Below are positions 14,906-53,155 of a DNA stretch of 64,000 bases, one piece after another (the first letter of the stretch is position 1; each line of letters begins with the position of its first letter). This stretch comes from Candidatus Latescibacterota bacterium (GTDB taxonomy: Bacteria; Latescibacterota; UBA2968; UBA8231), in assembly GCA_965204725.1 (NCBI GenBank), contig OZ242005.1:192001-256000 (forward strand), in the 5' to 3' direction. The position numbers were made by a program, and so were the translations under genes. Under the pieces are notes generated by a model, which was not told where the DNA came from, did not search any database, and saw only the letters and a list, made by a program, of their open reading frames with translations.

Positions 14906-14912
14906 CGCGACG

Positions 14913-14961: not shown

Positions 14962-14991
14962 GGGAACTCAACATCAACCAAGGAGTTCGTC

Positions 14992-23635: not shown

Positions 23636-23753
23636 ATTGCAGTCCTAAATGACTTGAAAGCATGGAATGTTCATCGGCACCGTCTTTTTGCATATCAGGC
23701 GTCATTCCCGCGAAAGCGGGAATCCAGTCTTGAATGATGTAGGATTGCTATAT
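23634..23753. mobile_element. About 120-bp MITE-like insertion
   Basis: Imperfect terminal inverted repeats (15/19), flanking TA (or 8-bp ATATTGCA) duplication, internal ATTCCC-N8-GGGAAT palindrome; removal restores overlapping genes. Confidence 0.72.
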
Positions 23754-25558
23754 TGCACGCCCCGTCCTTGCTCAATGAGCAAATGCCGGTCGGCAGGTAA
23801 CGCCCGAAAGACCTGCATGGCACCATGGGGCCATTGGACTTCGAGCCGGTCAATGCGCGGGTGGTCGCCCAATCCTACATGCAGCCGCCGATCGCCGGCC
23901 GATAAATAGCTGCTCCCGCTTCTGACGAGACGGCGCTGGTCCAACGAACCGGTCACCACGCGCACCTCGGCCCCCACAGCATCGCGGTTGGCCCCGGTAG
24001 CCACGAGCTTGATCGAGGCCCAGTGACGCCCGTTGCCGTTGTGGTTGCGCACCAGCTTGGCCGGGCCGCCGCAATTGGTCACCAAAAGGTCCAAATCGCC
24101 GTCGCCATCCCAGTCGCCCCGGGCCAGCCCCCGGCTTATTTGCTCTTGCGCGAACCAACTCCCCGCGCTATCGGCCACCTCAACGAACCGGCAGGCGCCA
24201 TCGTTGCGAAACAACTGATGCGCTTGGGCGTAGCGCACCCCAGGTTGCAACACCTCGACGCGGTCCAAAACATGGCCGGTGGCTACGTACAGGTCGGAGT
24301 CGCCATCGTGGTCGTAGTCGAAAAACGCGGTGCCAAAGCCCAAATAGAGCCAGCTCGGCCGGCCCAAGCCCGCCGCCGCGGTCACATCCTTGAAGTAGGT
24401 TCCCTCGTTGCGATAGAGCGTATTGGTTTCGCGGGAGAAATTGGTGACGAACAGATCCCAGTCACCATCGCGGTCGCAATCGCTAATATCGACTCCCATG
24501 CCGGCCTCGGGTTGGCCGCGCACATTGTAGGCCACCCCGGCTTGCAGGGCTATATCGCGGAACGTGCCATCGCCAGCGTTTTGGTAGAGAAAGTTGGCTA
24601 CCCCGTCGTTGGCTACGTACAGATCTTGGTAGCCGTCCTCGTTCCAGTCCCAAGCCACCACGCCCAGCCCCTTGCCCTTGGGATTGGCAATGCCAGCGGC
24701 CATGGACACCTCGACAAAAGTACCGTCCCCCGCGTTGTGGTAGAGCACATCGGGCACCCCCCCATACTCGCTGGGCGCGCAGTACGAGCGCGAATTTTCG
24801 CCAATGGCGCGCAAGCCCGCGTCGTCCGTGTGGATGAAGCCGCCGCAGACTTTGTTGGTCGCTAGGGTAAAATCGAGATAGTTGACCACGTACAGATCGA
24901 GCGAGCCGTCGTTGTCGCGGTCGAAAAAGGCGGCGCTGGTGCTCCATTGGGGAGCCTCGACGCCCCGGCCGCGGACGAAGGTAGCGTCCCCGCGGTTGCG
25001 ATAGAAGGCGTTGGGGCCGTAGTTGGTCGCGTACAGGTCTTGGTCGCCATCGTTGTCAGCATCGGCCACGGCGACGCCCATGCCATAGCCTGAGTCCGCG
25101 GCCCCACCAGCCTGGGGCACTTCGACAAAAGTACCCGTCCCTTCGTTGCGGTAGAGCGCGTTGCCCCTCGGTTCCACTCCAGCCGGGGGGGCCAGCTCAA
25201 CCGCATAATCGGCTGGGTCGGCCGAGCGTTCCTCCGGGCTGGGGGCCGATGGAGCCACCCAATAGAGGCCGCTTTCTCGGCGCACCAAGTTGATCGGCCG
25301 GGCGTCCAAGCCCCTTAGATCAAAGCCGTCAACCAGATAGACATCCAAGTCGCCGTCCTCGTCAAAGTCGGCCAAGGCCCCGCCGGCCCCCATGGTCTCG
25401 ATGAGAAAGTACTGCCCGGCCGCGCCGTTTTCGTGGACAAAGGAAAGGCCCGCTTGGTCGGTCGCATCGGTGAAATACACGGCCGGCGGCTCGCTTTGGC
25501 AGCCCAAGGCCCAGCCAAGCACCCCAATAGCCGTCCATCGTTGGACTGGGCGGCCCAC
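23702..25558 (-). CDS. CRTAC1 family lipoprotein (FG-GAP/VCBS repeats + ASPIC/UnbV domain)
   Basis: Lipobox ALGC; repeated DxDxDGDLD motifs; NRDAVGA...GSSYLS...HVGLG...VQWP. Confidence 0.9.
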   Translation of the reverse strand: MGRPVQRWTAIGVLGWALGCQSEPPAVYFTDATDQAGLSFVHENGAAGQYFLIETMGAGGALADFDEDGDLDVYLVDGFDLRGLDARPINLVRRESGLYWVAPSAPSPEERSADPADYAVELAPPAGVEPRGNALYRNEGTGTFVEVPQAGGAADSGYGMGVAVADADNDGDQDLYATNYGPNAFYRNRGDATFVRGRGVEAPQWSTSAAFFDRDNDGSLDLYVVNYLDFTLATNKVCGGFIHTDDAGLRAIGENSRSYCAPSEYGGVPDVLYHNAGDGTFVEVSMAAGIANPKGKGLGVVAWDWNEDGYQDLYVANDGVANFLYQNAGDGTFRDIALQAGVAYNVRGQPEAGMGVDISDCDRDGDWDLFVTNFSRETNTLYRNEGTYFKDVTAAAGLGRPSWLYLGFGTAFFDYDHDGDSDLYVATGHVLDRVEVLQPGVRYAQAHQLFRNDGACRFVEVADSAGSWFAQEQISRGLARGDWDGDGDLDLLVTNCGGPAKLVRNHNGNGRHWASIKLVATGANRDAVGAEVRVVTGSLDQRRLVRSGSSYLSAGDRRLHVGLGDHPRIDRLEVQWPHGAMQVFRALPADRHLLIEQGRGVQYSNPTSFKTGFPLSRE

Positions 25559-25570: not shown

Positions 25571-28084
25571 TCAATACACCACGTGAACGAGGCGCGTTAT
25601 CTGGGTTCGCACGTTGCGGCGCGCATCCGCCTGAACCGCCACTCGCACGATATACGTCCCCGGCCGCACCCGCTCGCCCGCGTCATTGACCCCGGCCCAA
25701 GCGACTGAGTATTGGCCGCTCGCCCGGGCGCGCCCCTGCTCCAGCGTCCAAACGCGCCGACCGGCCAGATCGTACACCGAGACGATTGCGGCCTCGGCTC
25801 CGTCCAAGCGCAGCACTTCAAAGCCAATCCGCGCGGCGTCGTTGATCCCATCGCCATTGGGCGTCACGGCCTTGGGAACTAGCGTCAGGTGCGCCAATCC
25901 CGCCGGTCCCGAGGGCACCAGCACCCGGAGGACGCCGCTTTCCACTTCGGCCACAGCCTCTTGATCGGCTTCAACCAATTGCCAAGTGCCCGAATCGGCG
26001 CGGTTGCCCACCCGCCCGGCAAAGGAAACGCCGTGGCCAAACAGGGAGGTCCATACATCAAGGGCTACGATCTCGTCGCGGCCCACCGCAGCGGGCAGCC
26101 GCACCCACAGGGAGTCGGCCGCCGTCTCGCGCACCTCCACTTCCTCTAAACCGAGCGCTTGGCCCCCGCCGGCCGCTACGGCTGCGGCCGCGCCGAGGCG
26201 AACCGCCCGCAGCGACAGCGGCGTCTCCCCGGAACTGACCAACAACACCTCGTCAATGCCCGGATCGCCCGGCCGCCGCACCGGTCGCACGAAAAAGGTC
26301 AGGGGCATATCCTCGCCCGGGCGTTCCACCCGCACCGGAAAGACCTCGCCCAAGGCCCGGCCCACCCAGGGTTGGGAAAACGACACCGCCAACCGCCGCA
26401 ATAAGACGGCATGTTGCGGGTCGTCGCTGCTCAGCCGCACTTGGGTCTTGAGGAAGCGGCGCGGCGATGGCGAAGTGATGACTTGGCCCGACCGCAGGTG
26501 CGGCTTGCTCCAAGGGCTCCAAGTCTCCTCGTCAACGACCAACACATTGAGCGAATCCCCCCGGAGCGCGGCAATCAGCTTGTGGTACGCTTTTTTATCG
26601 ACTTCGGCCCCGTCGCTCCGGTAGTAGGTAGTGTTGACTTTGGTCTGATCGCCGGTGCGGGTGGCGACCTCAATGCGCGTGCCGGGCGGGATGTCGGCGT
26701 CCCAGTGGAGCGCGGTCAAATTCCGGCTGCTGCTCAAGTCGATCAACGGCGATTCCAACACCACCTCCGGCTGATAGCCCTCGCCGTAGGCCTGTAGTTC
26801 GGACCAGCCGGCTCGGCTCCCCCCTCGGCCCACCAGATAGTCGAAGGCGATGTAGCGGACCTTTTGCAGCGCAAAGCGCACCGCTTGGAACCGAGGCTGG
26901 CGAAAGGCCCGCCGCTCTTCGACTTGCACCCACTGCAAGCTCCCGTCCGGCGCGAGCGAACCGTCCGACAGCTTCATCCGATAGTTGCCCAACGTACCGC
27001 CGGCACTGCGGGCGGCGGGCGGCAAAAAGTGGAATAGGTCCAGCCAGTACAAAGCCCCTAGGTCAAAGAGGACTTGCCGTTCGGGCTGGGCCGCCTCGCG
27101 GGTGTAACTCTGTTGCAGCCCGTACCAAGTGGTGTAGTCCCCATCGAGGCTGCGGGTGGGATTAAAGCCGTGCCCTTCCACCGTGCCACCCCGCTGAATC
27201 GCCCCCAGCGCTATGTTCTCGCCCAAGGTCCAGACCTCGACCTCGGCGAGGCGCGGTTGTTCGCGGCGGTAATAGCGGATTGAGCCTTGCTCAGCCGGGT
27301 CGAGCAGCGCATAGGCTTCCTCGTCGAGTAGCCACTCGGTCCCGGTGCGGCTGCGGCCAAAGTACTCCACGGCACCCTGTAGCTCCGCGGGCAAACTCTG
27401 GTAGGTCGAGCGGTCCACTTCCCCGGCCTTGCCCAAGCGGCTGTCCGTCATCACCACCTGCACAAAGCGAAAGGCATCGCCGATAAAATGGGGATCGGCC
27501 TGTTGGAAGGGCTGGAGGTCAAAAGAAAATTCGCGTTGATCCACATTGGGCCGCTCGGTCTTGCCGACCAAGTGATAATCGAGATTGTCGCCTACTTTGC
27601 CCTCGCCGTCGGCCACCATCAGGCGAAATTGGTAAAAGGGATCGCCCTCGCCAGCATTGGCAAAGCGCAACACAATGCGCTGGGCCGAAACGATCCGCCC
27701 CAAGTCAATCGCCACCCACCACAGATCCGGTGGATCGTCTAGATCAGGCTCCCAATAGGTATCGACCTGACCGTCGAGGAGGTGCGCGGCCCCGGCCAAG
27801 CCCGATCCAGCCGCTAGGATCCCCCCCTCCTTTTCGTCCTCGTCGGCCCCCAAGGGAAAGCGGTGGGCATTGAGGCTGGCGTTGAGTTCCGCCGCCACAA
27901 AGTGCGGCCGAGCGCCCTCGGAGTCGATATCGACCGTGCCAAAGGGGAACAGCCATTGCCGCCACTGGTCCGCGCCGTGCGTGATAATGCGGTCGCCTTG
28001 AATAGCGTACCCCTCCTCGGCCGCTGCGGCCCGGCAACCGAGCGCGACGACCAAAATCCAGATCGCCCAATGCCTGCTCGCCAT
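25571..28084 (-). CDS. Secreted protein with discoidin-like domains and C-terminal FlgD-Ig/T9SS type B-like domain
   Basis: RBS AGGAGG; signal peptide; IDLGR; TPNGDGIND...YDLAGR...PGTY...VHVVY. Confidence 0.8.
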   Translation of the reverse strand: MASRHWAIWILVVALGCRAAAAEEGYAIQGDRIITHGADQWRQWLFPFGTVDIDSEGARPHFVAAELNASLNAHRFPLGADEDEKEGGILAAGSGLAGAAHLLDGQVDTYWEPDLDDPPDLWWVAIDLGRIVSAQRIVLRFANAGEGDPFYQFRLMVADGEGKVGDNLDYHLVGKTERPNVDQREFSFDLQPFQQADPHFIGDAFRFVQVVMTDSRLGKAGEVDRSTYQSLPAELQGAVEYFGRSRTGTEWLLDEEAYALLDPAEQGSIRYYRREQPRLAEVEVWTLGENIALGAIQRGGTVEGHGFNPTRSLDGDYTTWYGLQQSYTREAAQPERQVLFDLGALYWLDLFHFLPPAARSAGGTLGNYRMKLSDGSLAPDGSLQWVQVEERRAFRQPRFQAVRFALQKVRYIAFDYLVGRGGSRAGWSELQAYGEGYQPEVVLESPLIDLSSSRNLTALHWDADIPPGTRIEVATRTGDQTKVNTTYYRSDGAEVDKKAYHKLIAALRGDSLNVLVVDEETWSPWSKPHLRSGQVITSPSPRRFLKTQVRLSSDDPQHAVLLRRLAVSFSQPWVGRALGEVFPVRVERPGEDMPLTFFVRPVRRPGDPGIDEVLLVSSGETPLSLRAVRLGAAAAVAAGGGQALGLEEVEVRETAADSLWVRLPAAVGRDEIVALDVWTSLFGHGVSFAGRVGNRADSGTWQLVEADQEAVAEVESGVLRVLVPSGPAGLAHLTLVPKAVTPNGDGINDAARIGFEVLRLDGAEAAIVSVYDLAGRRVWTLEQGRARASGQYSVAWAGVNDAGERVRPGTYIVRVAVQADARRNVRTQITRLVHVVY

Positions 28085-28132
28085 AGAAATCCTCCTAAGT
28101 ACGCGACACTTACTTTGAACTCGCTGCGTCCG

Positions 28133-28159
28133 GGATCGAGGGCAAGATGCCCTCGATCC
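28133..28159. repeat. Perfect 12-bp intergenic hairpin (REP-like or mRNA-stabilising)
   Basis: GGATCGAGGGCA-AGA-TGCCCTCGATCC; no U-tract. Confidence 0.7.
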
Positions 28160-28175
28160 TTGGGAAGCTGTTTTC

Positions 28176-30905
28176 CTACTCCAGACCCGCGTAGAACGAG
28201 ACAAAGACGAGGCTGCCGGTCTGAGTCTCAGCAGTGCGACTAACGCGCTCAAACTGGTCCCGATCAAAGCGCAGGCCGCACTGCATGATGGAGCGGTAGC
28301 CCAAGTACGTGCCGTAATGGGTCAGCTCAATCGCCACAACCGTCTGCTGGCCATCGCCCGTGCGCTCGCCCGCGGCCCTCTGCTGGGGGGCTGCGGCTAG
28401 GTCGGTGGTGAAAACCTGTTCGACGCCCGTCTCAATCCACGACTCCCTGAAAACGGGGAACCGCACGCTGAACGACAGGAGCTGTTTCCACCACTGCCGC
28501 TCGCTCTCTCGCTGGAGATAGGGGACATCCCAGAACAACTCGTTTTTGAGGCGCGGCCGGAGGTGGACTCGGCCCATGTTGCGGCCGTACTCGGCCTTGT
28601 TGACCACGCCCCAAAAGTGCCCCCGGCGCCGGGCGCCGCGCTCGGTGAGCACTGGCTGCGCGTCGCGCTGGTGAAAAACCTCGTACTTGAACTTGTTGAT
28701 GACCTCCAGCGACTGTAGGCCCGTGTAATCAAACCCCAGCCACGCGGTGTTGATCCAAGTGTTTTGGGCCGCTAGCGGGTCCGCTACCAAAGCCTGCTGA
28801 TCGCCCAGCGCCAGCGGGGCCGCCAAGCGGTCGTCCGCTATATTGTCGCGCACCTTCTTTAGCTGCTCAAAGAAGCGCAGGCGACCTATGCCGGGCCAGT
28901 CTTGCTCTAGGACGAAAAGGCCGTACGCGGCCTCGCTGCGCCGCTTGCTCGACAACTGCCACTGCTGCGTCTGCCCCGCGAGCAGGCGCACCTTGGGCAC
29001 GATGTCCACGCCGCCGTACACATTGTATCCCCGCAGATCCCGGTCGTAGGGATAGTCCGGGTCTGCGTCGTCCTCAAAGCGGTCAACCCAGCCGTTGTTG
29101 TTCATGTCGAGGCCAAAGAGGAACTCGGGGCGATCGACGTTGAAGCGCAAAAAGGGCTCCTCGTAATCGGCCAGTGCATTGCGGCGCGTCGGCGTATCAT
29201 TCTGATTAAAATCGGAGATGAAATCGCCATTCTCGTCCCACCCGGGGAACACGGCTGGATCGGCCGCTCCCTCGCCCGTGGAAAGGGTTTGCCCCAACCG
29301 CGAGGATTGCCACCGCCGCTTTTGATCCGGGAAGCGATCCAAATCGTCGTTGTCATCGACATAGTCGTATAAAAAGGACGCTTGATCGACGTAATCGACG
29401 CGCCCGTTGGTCTCGGTCATAAAGACGCTGGTGGTGTAATCCGGGTCCATACTAAAGACTTCGCCGTGCAAAAAATAGGGCACTCGCCTATGCGCGAACT
29501 CCACCATCCACGCCGCGGCCCGGCGAGCAGAGGTTCGGTGGGTCGTCAGCAGAGGGCTGGGGTACTGGGCAAAGCGGTGGTTCACGTTTAATTCGGCGTA
29601 CACGTCAAACCCCCACAGTTGGCGCACCTCTAAGGTGAGGCCGGCGAGCTGATTGGCCGTGGGTAAGCCGTAGTCAAACCGGACGGTGCGCCGATTGGAC
29701 GTATCGCCGACATTGCCCGGGGCGCGCTCGACCAAGAGAAAGACCGGCTGCGCCTCTATATTGGTCTGGCGGTTTGAAGCGACCTCGACCCGATAATCAT
29801 TGGCCAAGGCCAATTCAAAGCGCACCTCCGCGAGGGAATCGACCGTCGTTGGCTGCCAGGTAGGCTCGCCATCGACCACCACGACCCGCGCCGCGGCCAA
29901 GGCTTCGAGATTGTAGCGCAGCACCATGCGGTCGCCGCCATCGGCCACGGCAAAACCGTCGCGCAATTCGCCGCCCGTGCGCGCCGGCGCGTACCCGACC
30001 TGAGCGCCGTTCCACTGATGGCCGAGAACGTCCTTGAGGATGATATTCTCGGCAAAGAGAACGGCCCCATTCTCGCCGTCTTCGGGCGAATCGTCGCCGA
30101 GGCGCACCTCGACAAACGTGACCGCGTTGCTGGCTTGGTCGGTGGTGAGAAACCCCTTGAACATATTGCCGGCAAAGCGCTCCAAGGTGGCGCGGCTGTT
30201 GTGGCTGTTGACGTACGTCCCGCCGACCGTGAGGTGATCTCCTAGCTGGGCGGTGAGACGCCCGGCGGTCAATTCGGTCGCATTGGTCAGCCCCACGTCA
30301 AACGACGAGGTCGTGACCAGCGGCGCGCTGATCCGCGACAACAGCACCGTGCCCGCGTAGCGGTTTTGCAGATAGTGAAACTGGACGCCGTTGAAGGCGG
30401 CCTTGCGGAACGTCATCGGCGTGAGGGTAGTGGCTATTTCATCGCCTATGGTCAGGGAGAAGTGGTGCTGCCCCTTGGAGTCGGAGGCGATGATCAGGTT
30501 CTGGAAATTGCCGCCGTAGGGCAGGCCCTTGAGCAGGCTGTTGCCCTCCGAAGCTCTGGGCTGTTCCTTTCTCGCCTCATACACCAACCACCCGTGCATC
30601 ACGCGGCGGCCAAACAAGTCGTAGAAGTAATCTCCTTCGAGCGTGGCCGATAAATAGCTGCGATAGAAATTCCGCGCATAATTGGTGTATTCCCACTGCT
30701 TTAGGCGGTATTCGCGGTACAGCTCTTGGGGCATGTACCACTTCTGCACCCGCGGATCAATGGCGTTGATGAGCGTGCTGCGGCTGCGGGTGACGTATTG
30801 CAGCCCGACGCCGTGCCCCTGCCCCAAGCGATTGCCGTATTCCTCGGCGTAGAGGCCGCCGCCGAGTGACGACAGGGCGAGTATGGCAATGACCGCCCGG
30901 GGCAC
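28176..30905 (-). CDS. 909-aa exported hypothetical protein, putative outer-membrane beta-barrel
   Basis: Signal peptide; alternating aromatic beta-strand pattern; Asp/Asn-rich loops; ends FVSFYAGLE. Confidence 0.7.
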   Translation of the reverse strand: MPRAVIAILALSSLGGGLYAEEYGNRLGQGHGVGLQYVTRSRSTLINAIDPRVQKWYMPQELYREYRLKQWEYTNYARNFYRSYLSATLEGDYFYDLFGRRVMHGWLVYEARKEQPRASEGNSLLKGLPYGGNFQNLIIASDSKGQHHFSLTIGDEIATTLTPMTFRKAAFNGVQFHYLQNRYAGTVLLSRISAPLVTTSSFDVGLTNATELTAGRLTAQLGDHLTVGGTYVNSHNSRATLERFAGNMFKGFLTTDQASNAVTFVEVRLGDDSPEDGENGAVLFAENIILKDVLGHQWNGAQVGYAPARTGGELRDGFAVADGGDRMVLRYNLEALAAARVVVVDGEPTWQPTTVDSLAEVRFELALANDYRVEVASNRQTNIEAQPVFLLVERAPGNVGDTSNRRTVRFDYGLPTANQLAGLTLEVRQLWGFDVYAELNVNHRFAQYPSPLLTTHRTSARRAAAWMVEFAHRRVPYFLHGEVFSMDPDYTTSVFMTETNGRVDYVDQASFLYDYVDDNDDLDRFPDQKRRWQSSRLGQTLSTGEGAADPAVFPGWDENGDFISDFNQNDTPTRRNALADYEEPFLRFNVDRPEFLFGLDMNNNGWVDRFEDDADPDYPYDRDLRGYNVYGGVDIVPKVRLLAGQTQQWQLSSKRRSEAAYGLFVLEQDWPGIGRLRFFEQLKKVRDNIADDRLAAPLALGDQQALVADPLAAQNTWINTAWLGFDYTGLQSLEVINKFKYEVFHQRDAQPVLTERGARRRGHFWGVVNKAEYGRNMGRVHLRPRLKNELFWDVPYLQRESERQWWKQLLSFSVRFPVFRESWIETGVEQVFTTDLAAAPQQRAAGERTGDGQQTVVAIELTHYGTYLGYRSIMQCGLRFDRDQFERVSRTAETQTGSLVFVSFYAGLE

Positions 30906-30907
30906 GG

Positions 30908-33637
30908 CTAGAGACCCAGCCCGGCGTACACCGTGATGAAGGTCGTGAAGCCGGTCGAGGTCCTGTTCCCCAAGCCGAAATCATTGGCTTTCTCTTCGAC
31001 GATCTCCGCCGCTCGGCACTCGTATTGGAAACCGAGCTGGGTGATCAGTTTATAGCCCAAATAATCGCTGATGTTGGTCGCCTGAATCGCCAGAATCGTC
31101 TCGCGCTGATCCCCGGTATCCACCCCCTCGGCCCCGGTCGCCACGAGGGCCGCTTCGTCGCGGCGCAACTCCCAGCGATAATTTTGCTCCAAGCCCGCTT
31201 CGATCTGGGTGCGCGGCATCAGCGGCAGGCGGGTAATAAAAAACAGGCTCGGAGTCCACTGCTTGCGCTCGTCTTCGGCCCGCAGAAAGGGCGAGTCAAT
31301 CAGGTACTCGCTTTTGACCCGAGGCATCAGCTCCACCCCGGCTAGGGCGAGGGAATACTCGGCCTTATTGATCAGCCCGAAAAAGCGCGAATCTCGCCGC
31401 GCCCCCCGCTCGGCCAAGACCTCATCGTCGAGCAGTTGGTGGAAAAGTTCCCACTTGAGCTTGTTTTCCACCACGAGGTTGGCCGTGCCCGTGTACTTAA
31501 AGCCCAGCCACACCGTGTTGATCCACGTGTCTTGGGCCGGCAGCACATCTTGGACGGGCAACTGCGGCCCGCGAAAAAAGGGCAGGGGCGCGATGCGGTC
31601 GTCGGCAATGGTGTCGCGCGCCCGTTTTAGGTGTTCAAAGACCCGGACGCGCCCCAAGCCGGCGATGTCCTTGTCCAAGGTGAAGAGGGCATAACTAGTC
31701 TCGCTGCGCTGTGCCGCCGAGATCAACCACTGCCGGGTCCGCCCCGCCGTCAGCCGAATCTCCGGCGTCAGGTGAACGCCGCCGTAGGCGTTGTACCCCC
31801 GATGGTCGCGCTTGTAGGGGAAGTCGGGCTCGGTGTCGTTTTCAAAGCGGTCGATCCAGCCGTTGTTGTTGAGATCAATGCCAAAGAGAAACTCGGGGCG
31901 GTCGCTGTGATAGCGCAGGAAGGGTTCTTCGTAATCGGGCAACTGGTTCTCGCGCGTGCGGTTGTCGTTTTGGTTGAAGTCGTTGATGAAATCGTTGTTT
32001 TCGTCCCAGCCGGGAAAGACTTCGATATCGGGGCCGGCTTGGTTGGCTCGCCCCCAGTCGGGCGTGCGGTCTTGGTCGTCGTTGTCCTCGACGAACTCGA
32101 AGAAGCGGTTGTGGGTCGCATAGTCAATGACGCCCCGCTGGTCGCTGAGAAAAATGCTGGTCGCGTAGTCTTTGCCCATGCTGAATGCTTCGCCATAGAC
32201 AAACCACGGATAGGCGTTTTTCGCCGCGTTCAGCATCCACGCATCGGCCCGCCGCGAAGCCGCGTGGTGGTCGCCTTCGACATTGGGGTTGGGGTATTTT
32301 CTGAATTGGTGGTTGACCGCGTATTCGGCATAAGTGTCAAAGCCCAAGAAGCGAGTCGTCGCGAGGTGGAAACCGAAAATTTGGTTGGCAGTGGGCAGGC
32401 CGTAGGCAAAGCGCACGAGCCGCTGGTTTGACGTGTCGCGCACATTGCCGTCGGCCCGGGCGATGAGCAGGGGATGGAATTCGCCGGCGCGGCTCAGTTG
32501 GCGATTGGAGGCCATGGACACCTTGTAGTCGTTGGCCAGCACCAACTCGAACGTCACCTCGACAATGGTCGAGGGGTCTGGCCCCAAATAGGCGCGGTCG
32601 GAAAAATCGTAGATGAGGCGAATGGCCTCGTCCCCGTCCGCGGCCAAAAAGCCCCCCGGCCGCTGGAAACCGCCTTGGACGAGGGGCGTGAAGTTGATCT
32701 CCTTGCCGGTGACGGTTTCGCGCTCGCCGGTGTTGAAGTCGCTAATGGCCGTGATGATGATGTTTTGCGAAAACAGCGCGGCCCCACCCCGGCTGTCGGC
32801 GGGCGAGTCGTCTTCGAGCAAAATTTCAATGCGGGTGACGGTGCTGCTGTTTTGATCGACGGTCAAATCGCCTTGGGCGCGCCCGCCGAGAAAGCTCTCC
32901 AACAGGGTATTGGACTGGTGGGCGTTGACATAGGTGGCACCCAAGGAGACGAAATCGCCCACCTGAGCGGTGAAGTGGCCGCCGAGAAAGTCGGTGGTAT
33001 TCGACACGCCCGTAGGCACGGCACCGACCGCGACGCCCACTTGGTTGGGGGCACTGATGCGCGACAACAGCACGGTGGCTTGGTATTTGTCCGCGGCGAA
33101 ATCGGCCTCAATGCCATTGAAGGCCGGCTTGGAAAAAGTTAGGGGCGTCAGGGTCGTGCGAATGCTGTTGCCAATGGTCACCGCGTAGTGGTTTTGGCCC
33201 TTGCTGTCGGAGGCGATCAAGACGTTGTTGAACCACGAGCCATAGCGGCTGTCCTTGAATACGGTGCTGCCGAACTCGGCCGGTTGTTGCCGGCGCATGT
33301 CGTATATCAGCCAGCCTTGGGTGACAAAATTGCCGTATAGGTCGTAGAAGTAATGGCCCTCAATGGCCGTGTTGACGTAGCGCTGGTAATTCTCGCGGGC
33401 GTAGTTGTTGTACTGCCAAGGCCGCCAGCGGTACTCGTTGTAGAGTTCTTGGGGGACGTACCAGCGTTTGAGGGTGGGGTCGAGGGCGTCAAAGAGCACG
33501 CCCGGGCCGCGAGGTTCATAAGACACCCGACCGCCGCGCTGCACCCCGAGGCGCGAGCCGTAATCCTGCGCTTGGAGCCAAGCGGGACTCAGCAAGCAGC
33601 AAAGGAGCAGGAAAGCCAACCCGAACCGGCTAGACAT
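30908..33637 (-). CDS. 909-aa exported hypothetical protein, paralog of 28176-30905
   Basis: Shared WYxPQELYxEYR, IASDSKGQ, YGLPTANQ, FPGWDENxDFIxDFNQND; ends FITVYAGLGL. Confidence 0.7.
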   Translation of the reverse strand: MSSRFGLAFLLLCCLLSPAWLQAQDYGSRLGVQRGGRVSYEPRGPGVLFDALDPTLKRWYVPQELYNEYRWRPWQYNNYARENYQRYVNTAIEGHYFYDLYGNFVTQGWLIYDMRRQQPAEFGSTVFKDSRYGSWFNNVLIASDSKGQNHYAVTIGNSIRTTLTPLTFSKPAFNGIEADFAADKYQATVLLSRISAPNQVGVAVGAVPTGVSNTTDFLGGHFTAQVGDFVSLGATYVNAHQSNTLLESFLGGRAQGDLTVDQNSSTVTRIEILLEDDSPADSRGGAALFSQNIIITAISDFNTGERETVTGKEINFTPLVQGGFQRPGGFLAADGDEAIRLIYDFSDRAYLGPDPSTIVEVTFELVLANDYKVSMASNRQLSRAGEFHPLLIARADGNVRDTSNQRLVRFAYGLPTANQIFGFHLATTRFLGFDTYAEYAVNHQFRKYPNPNVEGDHHAASRRADAWMLNAAKNAYPWFVYGEAFSMGKDYATSIFLSDQRGVIDYATHNRFFEFVEDNDDQDRTPDWGRANQAGPDIEVFPGWDENNDFINDFNQNDNRTRENQLPDYEEPFLRYHSDRPEFLFGIDLNNNGWIDRFENDTEPDFPYKRDHRGYNAYGGVHLTPEIRLTAGRTRQWLISAAQRSETSYALFTLDKDIAGLGRVRVFEHLKRARDTIADDRIAPLPFFRGPQLPVQDVLPAQDTWINTVWLGFKYTGTANLVVENKLKWELFHQLLDDEVLAERGARRDSRFFGLINKAEYSLALAGVELMPRVKSEYLIDSPFLRAEDERKQWTPSLFFITRLPLMPRTQIEAGLEQNYRWELRRDEAALVATGAEGVDTGDQRETILAIQATNISDYLGYKLITQLGFQYECRAAEIVEEKANDFGLGNRTSTGFTTFITVYAGLGL

Positions 33638-33643: not shown

Positions 33644-35764
33644 TCAGTACGCCACGCTAACGAGGCCGGTTTTGGCCGCGGCGCCGACATTTGTATCGAG
33701 CGAGACGCGGACCAAATAGATGCCGGGCGCGACCACCGCGCCGTTGCCATCGCGCCCATCCCAAGCGGCGGCAAAGCGGCCGCTAGCCCGGTGGTCCGCA
33801 AAGGGCGCGGCGACGAACCGACCGCTCAAATCGCGGATCTCCACCCTGAGCGGCGCGCCTACGCCCAGCCGCAGCACCTCAAAATGGACCGCAGCCGCCT
33901 CGTTGACGCCGTCGCCGTTGGGGGTAAAAACTGCGGGGGTCACGTGAAGCCGCCCCAGCAGCGATCCCCTTATGGCGATGCGCACCGCCAAGTTGTTATC
34001 CACTGCGGTCAAATCCTCGCTGCCCACCGGGCGCGGATCCACGTCTTCGGCCCCGAGTTGCGCCGCATTGCCCGGCACCACCGCCTGCGGCAACGGCCCG
34101 TCGCCCGTCGCGGCCGGGTCGACCAGCCAAGCTCGACCGGCAAACCCCTGTCCAAAGCGCAAGACCGAAGTCGTGAACGAAATTTTGAGCAAATCGCCAT
34201 CGCCGACCGGGGGGAAGCCGACGACAAAGCGGCCGGGCGCAACGCTCTCAATGCTGAACTCGCCCACGCGCAGCGGCAAGTGCGCCTCGGCGAGGACCGC
34301 GTCAAAATCCGCCCCGGCGATTGGCTCGTCTTGGGCATTGAGCACCTCGATGCGGCCGATTTTTTCAAAGACGCTCGGCGAGGATATTTCAAAGCGATTG
34401 AAACCCGTATCCTGCGGCCGAACTCCCACCCGCGCTCCATAGGTGAACTCCACCACCTCCCCGGCCGCGACCTCGCGGGGGAAAATTTCGCCGACGATTT
34501 TTTCGGCCGGCACGGGGCGGGCCAGATCAAAGGACAGGGAGCCTACCCCGGCCGCGGCGAGAAAATCGCGGCTGACAAAATCAATCCTGAACTGGAAGTA
34601 CTGCCGCGGACCGGGTGAGACAATGGGCGTACCGGCCGGGGTCGTTCCCGCGGGCGGATAGGGGGGTGACCAGTTGCTCCAGTTGATTAGGTCGTCTCTT
34701 ATGGGTGCTTTTTGCTGGAGGGGCAGGCTGGCGTGATCGGCCTGTGAGAGCGCGAGGGCTTGCCGGACGGATTCGGGTTGGGAATTGTACTGGTCGAAAG
34801 CCTCGTCTAGGGGCAGGTCGTCGAGCAAGACGCCGTTGATTGCGGCCGCCTGCTGCCAAGGCACTTCCTGCAAGTCGGGGTTGAAGCGATTGAAGACAAA
34901 GGGCGTCGGGTCGCGGCCGGAACGGGTGAACACGCGAACATCCGACAGGCCGGCTAGGCCCTCGCGCCGCTCGCTCCAGCGCACCTGGCCCCAGTTGGCT
35001 AAATCGCCCAGATCGAAGATGTCCGACAAGTACTGGGCTTCGGGCACGAAGCCCGCGCCGAATAGTTCCAACTCATCGACTTCAAAGCCGATATTGGACA
35101 GCGACACCAAGCGCACGTAGCGCACGAATTGCAGGGGTAGGGACCAATCGACGACGGCCTCGGTGTTGTCCTCGACCCGCACGAAGGTAGTGTACTGCGG
35201 GCGGCCTTCCACCGACGTTTCCTCGCTGCCGTCGTTGAGTTGGAGGGCATAGCCGCGCATGAAGTCGTTTTCAAACTTGAACTCCGCACTAGGGCGAATG
35301 GTGTTGCGCGGGAAAAAGCGGATTCGGTTCACGCCAAAGCGCGCCCCCAAATCCAAGTCCATGATGATGCCGCGGGCGATGACTACTTCCCCGGCCGCGC
35401 TGGCCTTGCGGCGAAAGGCCGTTTCTGCATCCTCGTCAATCATGGCCGCCAGCGACGCCGCGCTGATCGAGGGCAGGGGCGAATTCATGCCGCCCCCCCG
35501 GTCGGACGCGCCGAGTGCCAGATTCCGCCCGGGGTCAATCTGTTGCGGGAAAATCCACCCCTCGGCAAACGCAAAGTCAATGACGCCGCCCGGCGTATTG
35601 CCAACGGCCAACTCGGTATTGGACAAGCGGAATTGCGGCGCAATTTCGTCCCCCCCGTCCAACCACGCCCGCCCACCTTGCCCCAAGGCAATGGTCTGTG
35701 CTGGGGCATCGGCGGCCAACGACAGCAACGCCGCGGCGAGAAGGCCGTACCTTTTCCTGCTCAT
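33644..35764 (-). CDS. Secreted protein with C-terminal FlgD-Ig/T9SS type B-like domain
   Basis: Signal peptide; DLGARFGVNRIRFFPR; GEIFP; TPNGDGVNE...WDGRD...VSVAY. Confidence 0.8.
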   Translation of the reverse strand: MSRKRYGLLAAALLSLAADAPAQTIALGQGGRAWLDGGDEIAPQFRLSNTELAVGNTPGGVIDFAFAEGWIFPQQIDPGRNLALGASDRGGGMNSPLPSISAASLAAMIDEDAETAFRRKASAAGEVVIARGIIMDLDLGARFGVNRIRFFPRNTIRPSAEFKFENDFMRGYALQLNDGSEETSVEGRPQYTTFVRVEDNTEAVVDWSLPLQFVRYVRLVSLSNIGFEVDELELFGAGFVPEAQYLSDIFDLGDLANWGQVRWSERREGLAGLSDVRVFTRSGRDPTPFVFNRFNPDLQEVPWQQAAAINGVLLDDLPLDEAFDQYNSQPESVRQALALSQADHASLPLQQKAPIRDDLINWSNWSPPYPPAGTTPAGTPIVSPGPRQYFQFRIDFVSRDFLAAAGVGSLSFDLARPVPAEKIVGEIFPREVAAGEVVEFTYGARVGVRPQDTGFNRFEISSPSVFEKIGRIEVLNAQDEPIAGADFDAVLAEAHLPLRVGEFSIESVAPGRFVVGFPPVGDGDLLKISFTTSVLRFGQGFAGRAWLVDPAATGDGPLPQAVVPGNAAQLGAEDVDPRPVGSEDLTAVDNNLAVRIAIRGSLLGRLHVTPAVFTPNGDGVNEAAAVHFEVLRLGVGAPLRVEIRDLSGRFVAAPFADHRASGRFAAAWDGRDGNGAVVAPGIYLVRVSLDTNVGAAAKTGLVSVAY

Positions 35765-35790: not shown

Positions 35791-36660
35791 TTACTCTGCT
35801 CGCCAAGCCGGAACATCCCATGAATTGTACCACGCCCACGCCCACTTGACCTTTTTGGCTGGCATCTCCACTTCGTACTGAATGGGCGCGGTAAAGGGCA
35901 GCAGTTGGGCTTGGCCGTCAATCTGCTCCCGCAGGTCTTCGAGGAAGGCGTTGACGTCCGTTAGATTGGGCGGCCAATGACCGGCCGGAATCGGCTCGGA
36001 CTGGCGATCGGTCCGATAGTGGGTGGGAATGACGAATTTGGGCCGCACCGCATCAATTAGCGGCCCCATCGGCGTCTTCATGTGGATCAAGTAATCGACG
36101 CGACCGCGCAGATTCTCCAGCGGCGGATAGGTCCCGTGCAAATCCCCGGTGTGGAAAATCGCGACGTCGCGGGCGGCATGGGTGACTAGATAGGCGCAAG
36201 TGGGCAGATCCGGCCGGGCGCTTTCGCCGCTTTCGTACACTTCGACCTGAAGCGGGCCTAGGTCGAGCTCAAAGGGGCCGGGAAATTCGCGGCGACCATA
36301 GCGCGCGACATCCTGATATTTGGGATAGACCACTTGGACCTTGGCCGGGTCGATGTGCTTGGTGATGGGCAGGTCGCGCGCAAAAGCGGCGTCGCCGTAG
36401 TTTTCGTCAATGGGTTCGTTGGGCGTCAGACAGCCGATGGGGACGAAGAGTTTTTTCCAGCGCTCGCCTTGGCAGAGCTTGTGCAAGGTCTTGGGGTGAC
36501 AATGGTCAAAGTGCTCGTGGCTGATAAAAATATAGTCGAATATCGGCTCGGCTCGTTCCAGTTCGGCACCGAATAGATAGGGATCGAAACACACGTTGAC
36601 ATCGCCCAGCAATGCCTCAAAGTGCCCACATCCAGCCCAGCGCAGATACATGCTGTCCAT
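35791..36660 (-). CDS. MBL-fold metallo-hydrolase (UlaG-like)
   Basis: FDPY, ISHEHFDH, FHTGD, VIPTHY; RBS GGAGG. Confidence 0.85.
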   Translation of the reverse strand: MDSMYLRWAGCGHFEALLGDVNVCFDPYLFGAELERAEPIFDYIFISHEHFDHCHPKTLHKLCQGERWKKLFVPIGCLTPNEPIDENYGDAAFARDLPITKHIDPAKVQVVYPKYQDVARYGRREFPGPFELDLGPLQVEVYESGESARPDLPTCAYLVTHAARDVAIFHTGDLHGTYPPLENLRGRVDYLIHMKTPMGPLIDAVRPKFVIPTHYRTDRQSEPIPAGHWPPNLTDVNAFLEDLREQIDGQAQLLPFTAPIQYEVEMPAKKVKWAWAWYNSWDVPAWRAE

Positions 36661-36684: not shown

Positions 36685-38547
36685 TCAATACGCGACCGCC
36701 ACGAGTCCACTGCGTTCTGTCGGTCCGTCGTCTGTATCCACCTGTACTCGGTAGAGATATACACCCGGCGCGACCACGCTCCCGCCGTCGGCCCGGCCGT
36801 CCCACCGCCGGGCGTATTGGCCGCTGGTATCCGCTCCCCGGTACAACTGGCGCACTCGGCGTCCCGCCAGATCGAATATGCCCACTTCTACCGCGCCGGT
36901 GCCGGCCAGTTCGAGCAGCGTGTACTCGATGTGGACCTCGTCGTTGACCCGGTCGCCATTGGGCGTGCATACCTGCGAACTGAGCACCAACTCACTGACG
37001 ATCGCGCGGCCCAACTCAATCCCCACCGACCGCTGGTTGCCGTCTAGGCGGAAGGTCGCATCCCCATCTTCAACCCACTGCCCCACTTCCAACGGGCGTT
37101 GGCTGTCGAAGACCTCGGCGGCGAAGACCGTGCCAAAGCGAAACACCCGTCCCGTGAAGAAAACCTCCACCACGCGGCCGGTCTTGCTCCGGTCCATGCG
37201 CCCCACTGCCAATACCAACCGCTGGTCCGTCAAAGGCTCGGCAAGGCGCCAATCCTGCAATTCCTCGTTGACGCGGACGGAATCGACGCCGGTGAACTGC
37301 CCCGCAGTCTTTAGCACCAAGCGGTCAAAGCCGCTTTCGCCGCCGGCAAAATCCGGCCGCATGGCATAGACAAAGGCCGTCTCTTCCCCCGGCTTGACCT
37401 CAATCGGCCAGATCTCCCCGAGCACCCGCCCGGCCACTGGCGGCTGGGTGACGCGGAATTCAATAAAATCAATGGCCGCGCCAGCCAAGCCACTCGGTAC
37501 AAAATCCAACTGCACTTGAATGAATTGTCGGGGGCTCGGCGAGGTAATCGCCGTGCCGAGACGGTCGGCCCAATCGTAAGGCCCCGACCACGAACTCCAA
37601 TTGTCGAGGTCTGTGGTAACTTCGGCTTTGTTGCCCTTGAGGTTGTTGTAGTCCGCCGCAGTCAAGGGCACGCCTTGGGCGTTGCGGAAGGTTTTCTCGT
37701 CGCCGCGGCCGGTAAAACGCCAGTAGCGGTTAGGGTCCGCCGTATGACCGCTGCGCGTACGGATGCTCAGTTTGGCGTTGGAATCTTCAAAGCCCGACCA
37801 GCGAATGGCACCCAAGCTCGACGGCTGGCCGAGGTCAAAGGCCCCGGAAGTGTACAGGGCACTCGATACATAGCCCTCGCCATAGACTTCCAACTCGGCG
37901 ATTTCCCAACCCTCTTTTTTGTGGATATTGAGTTGTATCTGATCGAGAACGCGGGGGACAAAGTTGATTTCGAGGCGCGGATTTCGGTTGTCGATCCCCC
38001 GTGCGATGACGTTTTTGCCTTGGGGCCTTATCGTCCCCTTGGGCAACGAGTACAGGGTGTAGTCCTCAATGAGGCGGTCGGGATGGTTCGGCCGGGGATA
38101 GACGACAACTCGATTGACCAAGAAGCGGCCGCCTAGATCGAGATACACCAAGGACGACTCCGAGCGCACGACGAGGACGGCCGGGTCGAGAAAAGTGGTT
38201 GAATCGCCGTCGGCGATCCGGTCGATTTCTTCGCCTTTGGTGAGAAAATTGTACTTCCAACTGCCGGGGCCGCCGCCGCGGGCGAAGGAAGATCGCGCCA
38301 TATTCTCGTCCGAAGGAATGAATACCGGGGCGAGCCGGCCCTCATGGCCGACCTCCACGCCGACCAGCACCCCCTCGGCACCCGCGGCAAAGCCCTCCCA
38401 GCTCAACTGGACAAACTCCACGTCTCGATGGCTCGCCAATTCGGGCTGCGGCAGCCCATGGCCACCCACTCTATATATGGTGAGTCCCCAAGCCAAGGTC
38501 GGGGCCAGAAAAGGCAGCAGCGCTAGGCGCAGCATCGCGGCTTGCAT
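36685..38547 (-). CDS. Secreted protein with C-terminal FlgD-Ig/T9SS type B-like domain
   Basis: Signal ending AWG; LDLGG; GEIWP; TPNGDRVND...VAVAY. Confidence 0.8.
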   Translation of the reverse strand: MQAAMLRLALLPFLAPTLAWGLTIYRVGGHGLPQPELASHRDVEFVQLSWEGFAAGAEGVLVGVEVGHEGRLAPVFIPSDENMARSSFARGGGPGSWKYNFLTKGEEIDRIADGDSTTFLDPAVLVVRSESSLVYLDLGGRFLVNRVVVYPRPNHPDRLIEDYTLYSLPKGTIRPQGKNVIARGIDNRNPRLEINFVPRVLDQIQLNIHKKEGWEIAELEVYGEGYVSSALYTSGAFDLGQPSSLGAIRWSGFEDSNAKLSIRTRSGHTADPNRYWRFTGRGDEKTFRNAQGVPLTAADYNNLKGNKAEVTTDLDNWSSWSGPYDWADRLGTAITSPSPRQFIQVQLDFVPSGLAGAAIDFIEFRVTQPPVAGRVLGEIWPIEVKPGEETAFVYAMRPDFAGGESGFDRLVLKTAGQFTGVDSVRVNEELQDWRLAEPLTDQRLVLAVGRMDRSKTGRVVEVFFTGRVFRFGTVFAAEVFDSQRPLEVGQWVEDGDATFRLDGNQRSVGIELGRAIVSELVLSSQVCTPNGDRVNDEVHIEYTLLELAGTGAVEVGIFDLAGRRVRQLYRGADTSGQYARRWDGRADGGSVVAPGVYLYRVQVDTDDGPTERSGLVAVAY

Positions 38548-38628: not shown

Positions 38629-39519
38629 TTAATGGACGAAACCGGCCTTGAGCCGGCCCCAAGTCGTGGCTTCAACCGAAGAGGGAATCGAGCCGAAGTC
38701 AACGCTCTCATCAATAGGCGACAAGAAGAAGTCGCTGCAACCATCGGCGTTCCTAAAGCCAATGTCGCTCTGGCTCAGGTTGTAGAATGCGTCCCAACCG
38801 CTGCACTCTTCGCCCTCGCGCGCCTCGCGGCAGCCAACATCGTAGTCCATCCAGTTGTAGTGGATGCCGATTATGTTGTTCTCTTGCATCGAGTGGATGA
38901 TCGACTCTCCGGGGCCGGCGGGATTGATGTCGTCGGTGGGGGCCAAGCGGATTTCCAGCCAAGTCGTCCCCGGACCGTAGTGTTCGCCTTCAAAAGTCGC
39001 CACCGCATTGTACCAGCCCTCCTCGGGCAGCCAAGTCGCCGCGCCCCAGAAGAAGTGGACAATTTCCGAGCCTAACACCGTGTCGCCGATGTTGTTGTAG
39101 GTCTCGGTCTGATAGCACTGCGAACCGTCCAACCGCTCATCGCCCGGGTAGCATTCGCCCCCGCTGTGATCGGCGTCGAGGAGAATTTGCCAAGTATCGC
39201 CCGGCCGGTTGATGTCGTCGAATACTTGGCTGTAAAAGTAGAGCCGGTTGGTCCCCAAGCTGAAGGTCACCGTGGCTTTGGCGTCGAAATTGGACGCATC
39301 GATCTCCCGTCCCCCTTGAGTATCGGGAAACTGCTCGGTGGTCTGCCAGTATGCCTCGGGGACGATATCGTATTCGCTGCCGACGCCGTCCAGTACGGGC
39401 TCGAGACCGGCTGGCCACTGGAAGGCCGGAAAAATGGCGCCTTCGGGCGAGTGCGCCGAAACATTGACCGCGAGGCCCAACGTGAGAGCCAAAGCAGCCG
39501 TCATAATATGACGTGCCAT
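38629..39519 (-). CDS. Secreted CBM9/DOMON-like protein with C-terminal TWGRLK motif
   Basis: RBS AAGGA; signal VNVSA/H; PVLDG, NRLYF, DADHSGG; ends SSVEATTWGRLKAGFVH. Confidence 0.75.
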   Translation of the reverse strand: MARHIMTAALALTLGLAVNVSAHSPEGAIFPAFQWPAGLEPVLDGVGSEYDIVPEAYWQTTEQFPDTQGGREIDASNFDAKATVTFSLGTNRLYFYSQVFDDINRPGDTWQILLDADHSGGECYPGDERLDGSQCYQTETYNNIGDTVLGSEIVHFFWGAATWLPEEGWYNAVATFEGEHYGPGTTWLEIRLAPTDDINPAGPGESIIHSMQENNIIGIHYNWMDYDVGCREAREGEECSGWDAFYNLSQSDIGFRNADGCSDFFLSPIDESVDFGSIPSSVEATTWGRLKAGFVH

Positions 39520-39718
39520 GTCTGTTCCTTTCTCATAAAGCAGGAAAATTGAAAATTTGCGTTCTAGCCGAGATACTTCTCTGAGCCTGATGCGCTTCCT
39601 CCTTTCCGCGATTGAGTGGGACAAAGGCCCATTTTGCTGGGTTCGGCTTACAAGGTACGAAATTTGAAAATTAAAAATCAAGAAAAATAAAAGCAGGCCG
39701 GACGTAGCGCTCACCGGG

Positions 39719-39770
39719 TGGATTCCCGCCCCGTGTCGGGGCACGGGGTGACGTTCTTTCGCGGAATGAC
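39719..39770. repeat. ATTCCC-type palindrome with inserted hairpin
   Basis: TGGATTCCCGCCCCGTGTCGGGGCACGGGGTGACGTTCTTTCGCGGAATGAC, same layout as 11746-11800. Confidence 0.8.
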
Positions 39771-39888
39771 CGCTAGCAGGCCACCCGCGCACCGGGTGCT
39801 TGCCGCGATGCCTTTTCTTTAATTCGTGCGCTTTGCCAGAGAAATATATATTCTGGTCGCCCACTTGAGTCTGCAAAGGAACCGCTTC

Positions 39889-52676: not shown

Positions 52677-52713
52677 AGTTCTTCCCCCTCTTGGAAGGGC
52701 CTAGAAACCTCAT

Positions 52714-53121: not shown

Positions 53122-53155
53122 CTATCTCATGCCTCCTTAAAAGGAAGAGCTGCCT

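Follow-up and report, generated by a model that had tools for sequence, protein, structure and literature searches.

Predicted giant outer-membrane beta-barrels encoded in tandem beside CBM32/Ig-like secreted proteins in Latescibacterota

We analysed a 64,000-nucleotide stretch of DNA from a Candidatus Latescibacterota bacterium (assembly GCA_965204725.1, contig OZ242005.1, positions 192,001 to 256,000; hereafter the window), in which two adjacent genes encode 909-residue proteins, here called barrel A (P0001) and barrel B (P0002). Latescibacterota occur widely, have not been cultured and degrade polymers of algae and plants. Our best reading is that both proteins are exported by Sec and form outer-membrane beta-barrels with about 26 strands. 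The genes of their family almost always lie beside genes for surface proteins of a sugar-binding type, and the family therefore probably supplies the membrane component of a device, not described before, for nutrient capture or surface anchoring. Although the fold is of a known class, no name exists for the family, and literature searches turned up no account of its pairing with CBM32 proteins that carry a C-terminal domain (CTD).

The two genes form a tandem pair on the minus strand. Barrel A (30908..33637) begins with ATG; barrel B (28176..30905), the second member, begins with GTG, and 2 bp lie between the stop of A (ending at 30908) and the start of B (30905). In BLASTP the proteins aligned end to end with 427/927 identities (46%), 61% positives and an E-value of 0. 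This similarity is far above chance, and the two proteins are paralogs. A first-pass annotation, made from the sequence alone, had described adjacent paralogs 2 bp apart that share a series of motif blocks; the open reading frame (ORF) coordinates and the full-length identity bear this out, and all the blocks can be read in both translations. IASDSKGQ and YGLPTANQ are identical in A and B. The other blocks occur as the pairs (A / B) YGSRLG / YGNRLG, DPTLKRWYVPQELYNEYR / DPRVQKWYMPQELYREYR, TTLTPLTFSKPAFNG / TTLTPMTFRKAAFNG, LEDDSP / LGDDSP, ELVLANDYKV / ELALANDYRV, DNDDQDRTPD / DNDDLDRFPD (in an acidic insert), GWDENNDFINDFNQND / GWDENGDFISDFNQND, DLNNNGWIDRFEND / DMNNNGWVDRFEDD and, at the C-terminus, FITVYAGL / FVSFYAGL. 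Reading of the translations and a hydropathy scan showed a signal-peptide-like hydrophobic N-terminus and no further hydrophobic helix in either protein. The signal peptide of A was read directly as residues 1–23 (33569..33637, minus strand), with a likely cleavage site between ...AWLQA and QD.

We aligned close relatives (A1, 45 sequences), the broad family (A3, 55 sequences) and the proteins encoded upstream of the barrels (A2). Structure was predicted for barrel A only, and B was placed by its 46% identity to A. The AlphaFold2 model of barrel A, built on A1, had a mean predicted local distance difference test score (pLDDT) of 72.9 and a predicted TM-score (pTM) of 0.70. Residues 104–907 were modelled as long antiparallel strands and hairpins in an all-beta arrangement with no long helix; pLDDT was 82–94 in the C-terminal half and fell below 50 in residues 16–93 and in parts of 538–600. 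A Foldseek search of the PDB with this model returned 132 matches at E ≤ 1e-3, and all 46 matches listed among ranks 1–50 were outer-membrane beta-barrels, with probabilities of up to 1.00. The best was MtrB (6r2q_B, E 1.4e-9), Deinococcus SlpA stood at ranks 2, 3 and 6, LptD appeared from rank 4, and TonB-dependent receptors, FimD/PapC ushers and porins were among the further matches listed. These results agree with the earlier suggestion of large beta-barrels, to which a soluble enzyme or propeller had been named as the contrary outcome; the model of barrel A resembles neither.

Searches with sequence profiles gave the proteins no name. Pfam returned zero matches at E ≤ 1 for P0001 or P0002. 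In NCBIfam, P0001 had no match and P0002 had only a chance-level match to enterochelin esterase (12.9 bits vs a cut-off of 222). Separate Pfam searches with the N-terminal region of A and with each of its two inserts (beta-rich and acidic) found nothing at E ≤ 10. Sequence profile searches of the PDB with A1, A3 and the acidic insert alone gave only two chance matches (E 0.02 and 0.32). In the ESM Atlas the whole barrel matched only its own unnamed clusters, and the nearest named entry, DUF6029 'TonB-dependent receptor-like barrel' (0.89), was below the trust level.

Parsing of the DSSP string of barrel A gave 26 strands, a count obtained without coordinates. In the order derived in this way, nine strands lie in residues 104–300, an insert follows at 301–404, four strands occupy 405–487, the acidic insert spans 488–611 and thirteen strands fill 612–907. 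On one side of the barrel, all 12 turns have 2–9 residues. On the other side, 11 of the 13 connections have 8–124 residues, and the remaining two have 2 and 5. Such an alternation of short and long connections would be the usual outer-membrane pattern and would place the inserts outside the cell or in the lumen.

In this topology the barrel would carry three conserved non-membrane parts, namely an aromatic N-terminal segment, a beta-rich insert and an acidic insert resembling EF-hand or dockerin loops. The aromatic-rich N-terminal region (residues 24–103; 33329..33568, minus strand) was modelled with low confidence. It has many invariant columns in A1, and its conservation is 0.8 in close relatives and 0.2–0.4 in the broad family; it may be periplasmic or act as a plug. 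The beta-rich insert (residues 301–404; 32426..32737, minus strand) was delimited by DSSP between the putative strands 9 and 10 at pLDDT 83–91, and presumably lies outside the membrane.

The acidic D/N-rich insert (residues 488–611, 124 residues; 31805..32176, minus strand) contains EF-hand-like loops at residues 545–556 and 588–599. D588, N590, N592, D596 and E599, together with D545, N547, D549 and D553, are invariant in A1. Ligand positions 1-3-5-9-12 are the spacing of an EF-hand or dockerin loop, and D588/N590/N592/D596/E599 fit EF-hand positions 1, 3, 5, 9 and 12. A strict regular expression for the loop matched 20/45 members of A1 and 31/55 of A3, vs 5/2000 shuffles of P0001. The insert is the best-conserved block of the protein, with a column identity of 0.82–0.86 in A1 and 0.56–0.67 in A3; it is near-invariant even at 25% identity, and 55 of its 124 positions are conserved in both paralog lineages. 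Judged by this conservation, it is the hallmark of the family. Searched alone, the insert had no match in Pfam (including EF-hand and dockerin) or the PDB, and no usable match in the ESM Atlas. Calcium-binding loops had been proposed in the first-pass annotation: EF-hand-type spacing is indeed found at invariant positions, and calcium binding itself, which is plausible, stands as a prediction.

A word-indexed search recovered at least 998 clusters at 90% identity (E ≤ 1e-3); the 120 clusters listed are all without a Pfam domain, and where they are named at all the name is 'hypothetical protein'. When representatives at 50% identity were searched exhaustively, 783 reached E ≤ 1e-3, 206 of them E ≤ 1e-30. 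A genome scan confirmed 609 of 647 candidate stretches as family loci; the best 80 of the 609, from 47 genomes, together with the window made up our neighbourhood sample of 81 loci. Among these best 80 loci, 54 were titled Latescibacterota and 20 Gemmatimonadota, with few other titles. The family is concentrated in metagenome-assembled genomes (MAGs) of the Latescibacterota type, and a search from a distant member also reached MAGs titled Marinimicrobia and Bacteroidetes. It is multicopy, with up to five of the best 80 loci in one genome. Five loci (L001–L005) contained orthologues of the window pair, 93–94% identical. No longer fused forms were found, which counts as weak evidence.

The search from a distant member also revealed a faint connection with SlpA. 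Of the 120 proteins that it listed, ten were pre-labelled PF21620 (SlpA_C); when these 10 were rescanned, nine matched at E ≤ 0.1 and only P0329 (37.7 bits) was above the 35-bit cut-off. The matches always fell at profile positions about 226–335 of 656 (about 80–100 positions), and 2/18 relatives scanned had a sub-threshold SlpA_C match. P0329 aligned with P0001 over its full length (28% identity, E 3e-83), and its SlpA_C stretch corresponds to P0001 residues about 400–492, the four strands before the acidic insert. These alignments suggest that any kinship between the family and the SlpA-type barrel is remote. The earlier proposal of a new family thus holds in so far as the family is unnamed in Pfam and NCBIfam, but 'entirely new' is too strong, since distant relatives match PF21620 locally.

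ORFs were called in all 81 loci of the neighbourhood sample, and their products were grouped into clusters. Among 110 family genes of at least 700 aa, the upstream neighbour was a cluster-0 protein on the same strand in 68, another family member in 21 and something else in 18; the other 3 genes lay at a locus edge. The gaps between the cluster-0 gene and the barrel gene were mostly −47 to +79 bp. An analysis of homologous neighbourhoods had been recommended in the first-pass annotation, and its result extends the linkage of barrel and CTD genes well beyond the window. The cluster-0 proteins upstream of barrels form one family, 31–44% identical to the 706-residue protein of the window. CHU_C, a type B signal, was above the Pfam cut-off in 5/6 cluster-0 proteins scanned, FlgD_ig passed too, and the motif FTPNGDGIND was conserved in A2. 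Their CTDs scored below the NCBIfam cut-offs for both type A (TIGR04183) and type B (TIGR04131: 17.7–26.3 bits vs 35).

Other recurrent neighbours were CBM9-like secreted proteins (cluster 2, 48 loci), SurA-like isomerases (cluster 3, 37 loci), DUF6785/6784 polytopic membrane proteins (cluster 4, 25 loci), PMT_2+TPR proteins (cluster 6, 14 loci), FG-GAP/ASPIC proteins (cluster 5, 13 loci), LRR proteins (11 loci) and ABC sugar-uptake genes (SBP_bac_1, BPD_transp_1, ABC_tran+TOBE_2; about 9 loci). NCBIfam searches with the unexplained neighbour clusters and the distant relatives gave nothing useful. A second arrangement, CTD protein – barrel – CTD protein (or other genes) – barrel, was found in 15 loci (L035, L038, L040, L043, L044, L046, L049, L055, L057, L060, L061, L066, L069, L070 and L080); its upstream barrels form a long-branched, divergent clade of 15 members. 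Seven loci in which the ORF picker returned no family gene were left out of the neighbour analysis. In five of these (L006, L019, L031, L072 and L073), the barrel gene is overlapped, and was displaced, by a longer antisense ORF of about 1085 codons (cluster 18). This ORF is probably a high-GC artefact and a caution for automatic gene calls.

To trace the pair, we built a FastTree phylogeny of the 110 family proteins. Twenty of the 21 'second' copies fell in one clade with one extra single gene (support 100), and P0002 is in this clade. Beside it stood 20 of the 21 'first' copies, and the joint clade of 42 rows had a support of 99. Because the two clades adjoin and their branching orders match, the pair can be traced to one old tandem duplication and has since been kept as a pair. 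The 'first' and 'second' lineages have the same residue, conserved to 90% or more, at 191 positions, and at only 6 positions do they conserve different residues. These counts indicate that both copies are functional, with much the same role; a hetero-oligomer of A and B is possible. A separate, recent tandem duplication was seen in L070 (9507–14758), a locus with three family genes, where the copies are sisters in the tree.

Distances between barrels were then compared with those between their upstream proteins. Over 65 pairs the pairwise distances correlated with r = 0.95, and 0/500 permutations reached so high a value. In deep comparisons, the body of the partner protein still tracked the barrel (r = 0.81).

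In the window, the barrels belong to a minus-strand unit in the order CBM9-like protein, CTD protein, metallo-beta-lactamase-fold protein, CBM32/Ig/CTD protein, barrel A, barrel B, F5/8C+CTD protein, FG-GAP/ASPIC protein, PMT_2+TPR protein and aquaporin. The description of this region as a CTD-protein operon proved apt, as three minus-strand neighbours (36685–38547, 33644–35764 and 25571–28084) carry FlgD_ig/CHU_C C-terminal domains. The upstream partner of barrel A (33644..35764, minus strand, 706 aa), separated from it by a 6-bp gap, has a signal peptide, a CBM32-like jelly roll, Ig-like domains and a 7-strand CTD of T9SS (type IX secretion system) type. Pfam gave FlgD_ig 32 bits and CHU_C 18 bits. 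Its AlphaFold2 model (pLDDT 86.7) is a chain of beta-sandwiches, and Foldseek matched it to CBM32 (4a41, TMt 0.75) and to galactose oxidase and PrgB Ig domains.

The second CTD protein (36685..38547, minus strand, 620 aa; cluster 0) matched CHU_C at 37.6 bits and FlgD_ig at 32.6 bits. Between the two CTD genes lies the metallo-beta-lactamase-fold gene (35791..36660, minus strand, 289 aa; Lactamase_B_3, E 3e-10), which is kept only in the closest orthologous loci (cluster 17, 5 members including that of the window). The first gene of the unit encodes a CBM9-like secreted protein of about 296 aa (38629..39519, minus strand; cluster 2 by BLASTP). Its likely start, placed by homologues and the signal peptide, is M155 (39519) of the 450-aa ORF 38629–39981, which is 93% identical to L002/L005 from residue 155 on. 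Downstream of barrel B, a CTD protein of about 837 aa (25571..28084, minus strand) matched F5_F8_type_C (29.5 bits), CHU_C (31.7 bits) and FlgD_ig (36.7 bits). Homologues and the signal peptide place its start at M62 (28084) of the 898-aa ORF 25571–28267, so the overlap of that ORF with barrel B is not real. Cluster-0 relatives of this protein also occur downstream of barrels elsewhere. The unit continues with the FG-GAP/ASPIC-UnbV repeat protein (23702..25558, minus strand; cluster 5) and a PMT_2 glycosyltransferase-like membrane protein with TPR repeats and nine hydrophobic segments (21632..23635, minus strand; cluster 6). A scan of the operon for sigma-70 promoters and terminators gave counts not above those of shuffles.

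Outside the unit, a SurA/PpiD-like periplasmic peptidyl-prolyl isomerase (39826..41586, plus strand; Rotamase_2, Rotamase, SurA_N_3 and NCBIfam PPIase matches; cluster 3) is encoded divergently from the operon. An uncharacterised polytopic membrane protein of the DUF6785/DUF6784 type (46210..48243, minus strand; Pfam E 1e-122, at least 8 hydrophobic segments; cluster 4) could be the inner-membrane leg of the module.

Several genes elsewhere in the window bear on secretion. A PorV/PorQ-like small barrel of 317 aa (57153–58106, minus strand) matched NF033709 at 77.8 bits (cut-off 90) and TIGR03519 at 44.7 bits. Near it are a second CBM9-like gene (58885–59817, minus strand; CBM9_1 match, cluster 2) and a fourth cluster-0 CTD protein (60264–62918, plus strand), with no giant barrel. 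This group, 57153–62918, resembles the module with the barrel missing and hints at a T9SS-like route. Two proteins with He_PIG Ig domains, one of 1525 aa (7143–11720, minus strand) and one of 913 aa (14662–17403, plus strand), carry type A sorting domains (34.3 and 28.5 bits vs an NCBIfam cut-off of 23), so the window contains two classes of CTD. Together, the PorV/PorQ-like barrel and the type A CTD proteins make a T9SS-like route plausible in the host of the window. Our literature search found no paper linking Latescibacteria with T9SS. Beside the PorV-like gene, a run of four minus-strand genes (51315–57097) encodes a 1081-aa TPR protein, MotA/ExbB, ExbD and DUF4159. It could be an energising unit, but no TonB or GldLM-type gene was recognised. 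The G+C content was 0.49–0.55 at 52000–60000 vs about 0.62 in the remainder of the window. At 4964–6994 (minus strand) the window also encodes a 676-aa Schlafen AlbA_2 + HATPase_c_4 + TPR protein, which is unrelated to the barrels.

From synteny and by analogy, we propose that the barrel is a membrane-embedded partner that docks CTD proteins and acts as a channel, within a capture-and-uptake module like a polysaccharide utilization locus (PUL). We hold this reading tentatively, at somewhat less than an even chance; an anchor or channel role for the barrels had already been suggested in the first-pass annotation. In the proposed mechanism, a T9SS-like route would bring the CBM32 + Ig-like + CTD proteins to the surface, where the barrel would hold them and they would capture a glycan. 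The glycan would then cross the plugged barrel into the periplasm, and inner-membrane transporters, encoded in many loci, would take it up. A and B may form a hetero-oligomer or serve two partner sets. We favour docking plus channel over a pure PorP-like anchor because several features look more like a SusCD-type uptake unit: the size of the barrel and its inserts, partners of a carbohydrate-binding type, transporters in the inner membrane and the presence of many copies in a genome. A bolder version, which we consider rather unlikely, would be a plug-less, TonB-independent import barrel of about 26 strands gated by the calcium-type insert. It would have CBM32 lid or capture subunits delivered by a T9SS-like route, as a SusCD counterpart made from unrelated parts, and the tandem pair would be a heteromeric two-barrel unit. 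A complex prediction for barrel A 24–909 with the partner CTD 595–706 (A1, A2), run without controls, scored 0.00 and 0.01 vs a mark of 0.32 and weighs neither way.

Several results weigh against the docking-plus-channel reading or limit it. Eighteen of the 110 barrels have a different upstream neighbour, with 3 more at a locus edge. ABC sugar-transporter genes occur in only about 9/81 loci. The recurrent neighbours include no recognisable glycoside hydrolase or lyase, which leaves the glycan substrate conjectural. In the model, pLDDT drops below 50 for 183 residues, among them those of the conserved N-terminal region and some of the acidic insert. TM-scores to solved barrels are low (0.12–0.38), so the match is to the outer-membrane barrel class and assigns no particular family. 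The strand number and the side of the inserts come from the DSSP string, and strand amphipathicity is present but moderate. The partner CTD (last 100 residues) fails to track the barrel in deep comparisons (r = 0.17), and the high overall correlation can be explained by two genes duplicating as a unit. The co-divergence fits joint duplication of units together with a C-terminal signal read by a shared machine, and is no proof of contact.

The competing account closest to ours gives the barrel a pure PorP/SprF-like role, as a shuttle or surface anchor that collects the upstream CTD protein from a T9SS-like translocon without transporting solutes. The CTD-then-barrel gene order of 68/110 genes, CHU_C above cut-off in 5/6 cluster-0 proteins, the conserved FTPNGDGIND of A2 and the PorV/PorQ-like barrel encoded in the window are all what such a role would predict. 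Yet neither barrel matches PorP_SprF or TIGR03519 at E ≤ 1, each is about three times the profile length, and the partner CTDs lie below the cut-offs of both TIGR04131 and TIGR04183. The modelled partner CTD has 7 strands, as in type A, whose CTD is given 7 strands in passages of PMC12618676. The CTD does not co-diverge with the barrel, and 26 strands with three conserved inserts exceed the needs of an anchor. We therefore regard this role as doubtful, though it deserves serious attention. Still less probable is an SlpA/OmpM-like envelope scaffold, an abundant structural barrel that would organise the envelope or anchor a surface layer of the neighbouring beta-sandwich proteins. P0001 and P0002 lack an SLH domain, a coiled coil, a peptidoglycan-binding domain and an SlpA_C match, and many divergent copies per genome in neighbourhoods of their own suit substrate-specific modules better. 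What speaks for the scaffold is SlpA at Foldseek ranks 2, 3 and 6, the 10 of 120 distant relatives listed that were pre-labelled SlpA_C (1 of those 10 above cut-off), and SlpA itself, in which metal sites stabilise insertions in the lumen and to which an accessory beta-sandwich protein is bound (PMC9388160).

It is very unlikely that the barrels are dedicated secretion pores, usher-, TpsB- or SprA-like, for the neighbouring CTD proteins. The tight gene linkage to secreted proteins, the ushers FimD and PapC among the Foldseek matches and the SurA-like chaperone gene in 37 loci would suit such a pore, but Pfam and NCBIfam found no POTRA, usher or SprA signature in P0001 or P0002. Moreover, conservation of the CTD extends over the paralog subfamilies, which would be expected if a single common machine, and not many private pores, read it as a signal. 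A shared T9SS-like route is also suggested by the type A CTD proteins and the PorV-like protein of the window. We would be most surprised if the proteins were not membrane barrels at all and AlphaFold had wrongly closed a soluble or surface beta-rich protein. The mean pLDDT of only 72.9, the low TM-scores and the modest hydrophobic strand face would allow this, as would the C-termini: the canonical outer-membrane beta-signal is a terminal aromatic residue, and A and B end in ...YAGLGL and ...YAGLE. Against it stand the 46 matches listed by Foldseek, all outer-membrane barrels with probabilities of up to 1.00, the pLDDT of 82–94 in the C-terminal half, the regular alternation of short turns and long loops, and the sequence link to SlpA_C via relatives.

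Numbering 998 or more clusters (90% identity) and 609 loci, the barrel family is among the largest unnamed outer-membrane families measurable here, and it is multiplied within genomes like the SusC/SusD pairs of Bacteroidota. For outer-membrane traffic, passages of a 2015 Latescibacteria genomic study assume only 'non-specific porins' and Plug-domain receptors (PMC4454575). If the barrels are docking or uptake partners of carbohydrate-binding proteins that bear a CTD, they would reveal a way in which T9SS-type cargo is coupled to the outer membrane in phyla other than Bacteroidota, and they would provide a marker for substrate-specific loci in these genomes. They are also of structural interest as very large barrels whose best-conserved part is a predicted insert of the calcium-binding type.

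Among known systems, MtrB and LptD are the best Foldseek matches. They are barrels of 26 strands that enclose a partner protein; our strand estimate for the family is similar, and a wide lumen needs filling. They differ in that they have no sequence match to the barrels and TM-scores of 0.18–0.31. No multihaem cytochrome or LptE-like gene was found among the barrel neighbours. Identities as LptD, usher, TpsB/Omp85 or SprA were considered and rejected, as no family profile matched and the expected accessory domains or neighbours were absent. For type B CTD substrates of Flavobacterium, passages of PMC12618676 and PMC9143113 describe a CTD gene followed by a PorP/SprF-like shuttle gene. The barrels resemble this system in lying directly downstream of a gene for a CHU_C-type CTD protein and in forming several paralogous pairs per genome. 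There is, however, no sequence match (PF11751 or TIGR03519, E ≤ 1), the barrels are about three times longer than the PorP/SprF profile (292 positions), and the partner CTDs fall below the NCBIfam type B cut-off and were modelled as 7-strand sandwiches.

SlpA (PF21620; PDB 8ae1, 7zgx and 8agd) is likewise a very large single-chain barrel with big insertions. PMC9388160 reports a 30-strand barrel with metal-site-stabilised lumen insertions and a bound beta-sandwich accessory protein. Acidic sites of the metal-binding type are a shared trait, and beta-sandwich proteins are bound by SlpA and encoded beside the barrels here. In contrast to SlpA, the barrel family has no SLH domain or coiled-coil stalk (neither P0001 nor P0002 matched SlpA_C or SLH in Pfam at E ≤ 1), and its putative strands number about 26 rather than 30. 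It also has many paralogs per genome in PUL-like neighbourhoods, and it occurs in candidate phyla of the Fibrobacterota–Chlorobiota–Bacteroidota (FCB) type, not in Deinococcota. With regard to SusC/SusD PULs, no Plug domain, TonB box or TonB_dep_Rec was matched by Pfam in P0001, P0002 or the N-terminal region alone, and neither the neighbours in the window nor the representatives of the clusters included a SusD family member. The partner of the barrels is instead a CBM32/Ig protein with a secretion CTD, and no carbohydrate-active enzyme was recognised among the recurrent neighbours. The likeness lies in the organisation: as in SusC/SusD loci, a large barrel gene is paired with a gene for a surface protein of a carbohydrate-binding type, the unit is multiplied within genomes, and barrel pairs have accessory genes of their own, with inner-membrane sugar transporters nearby.

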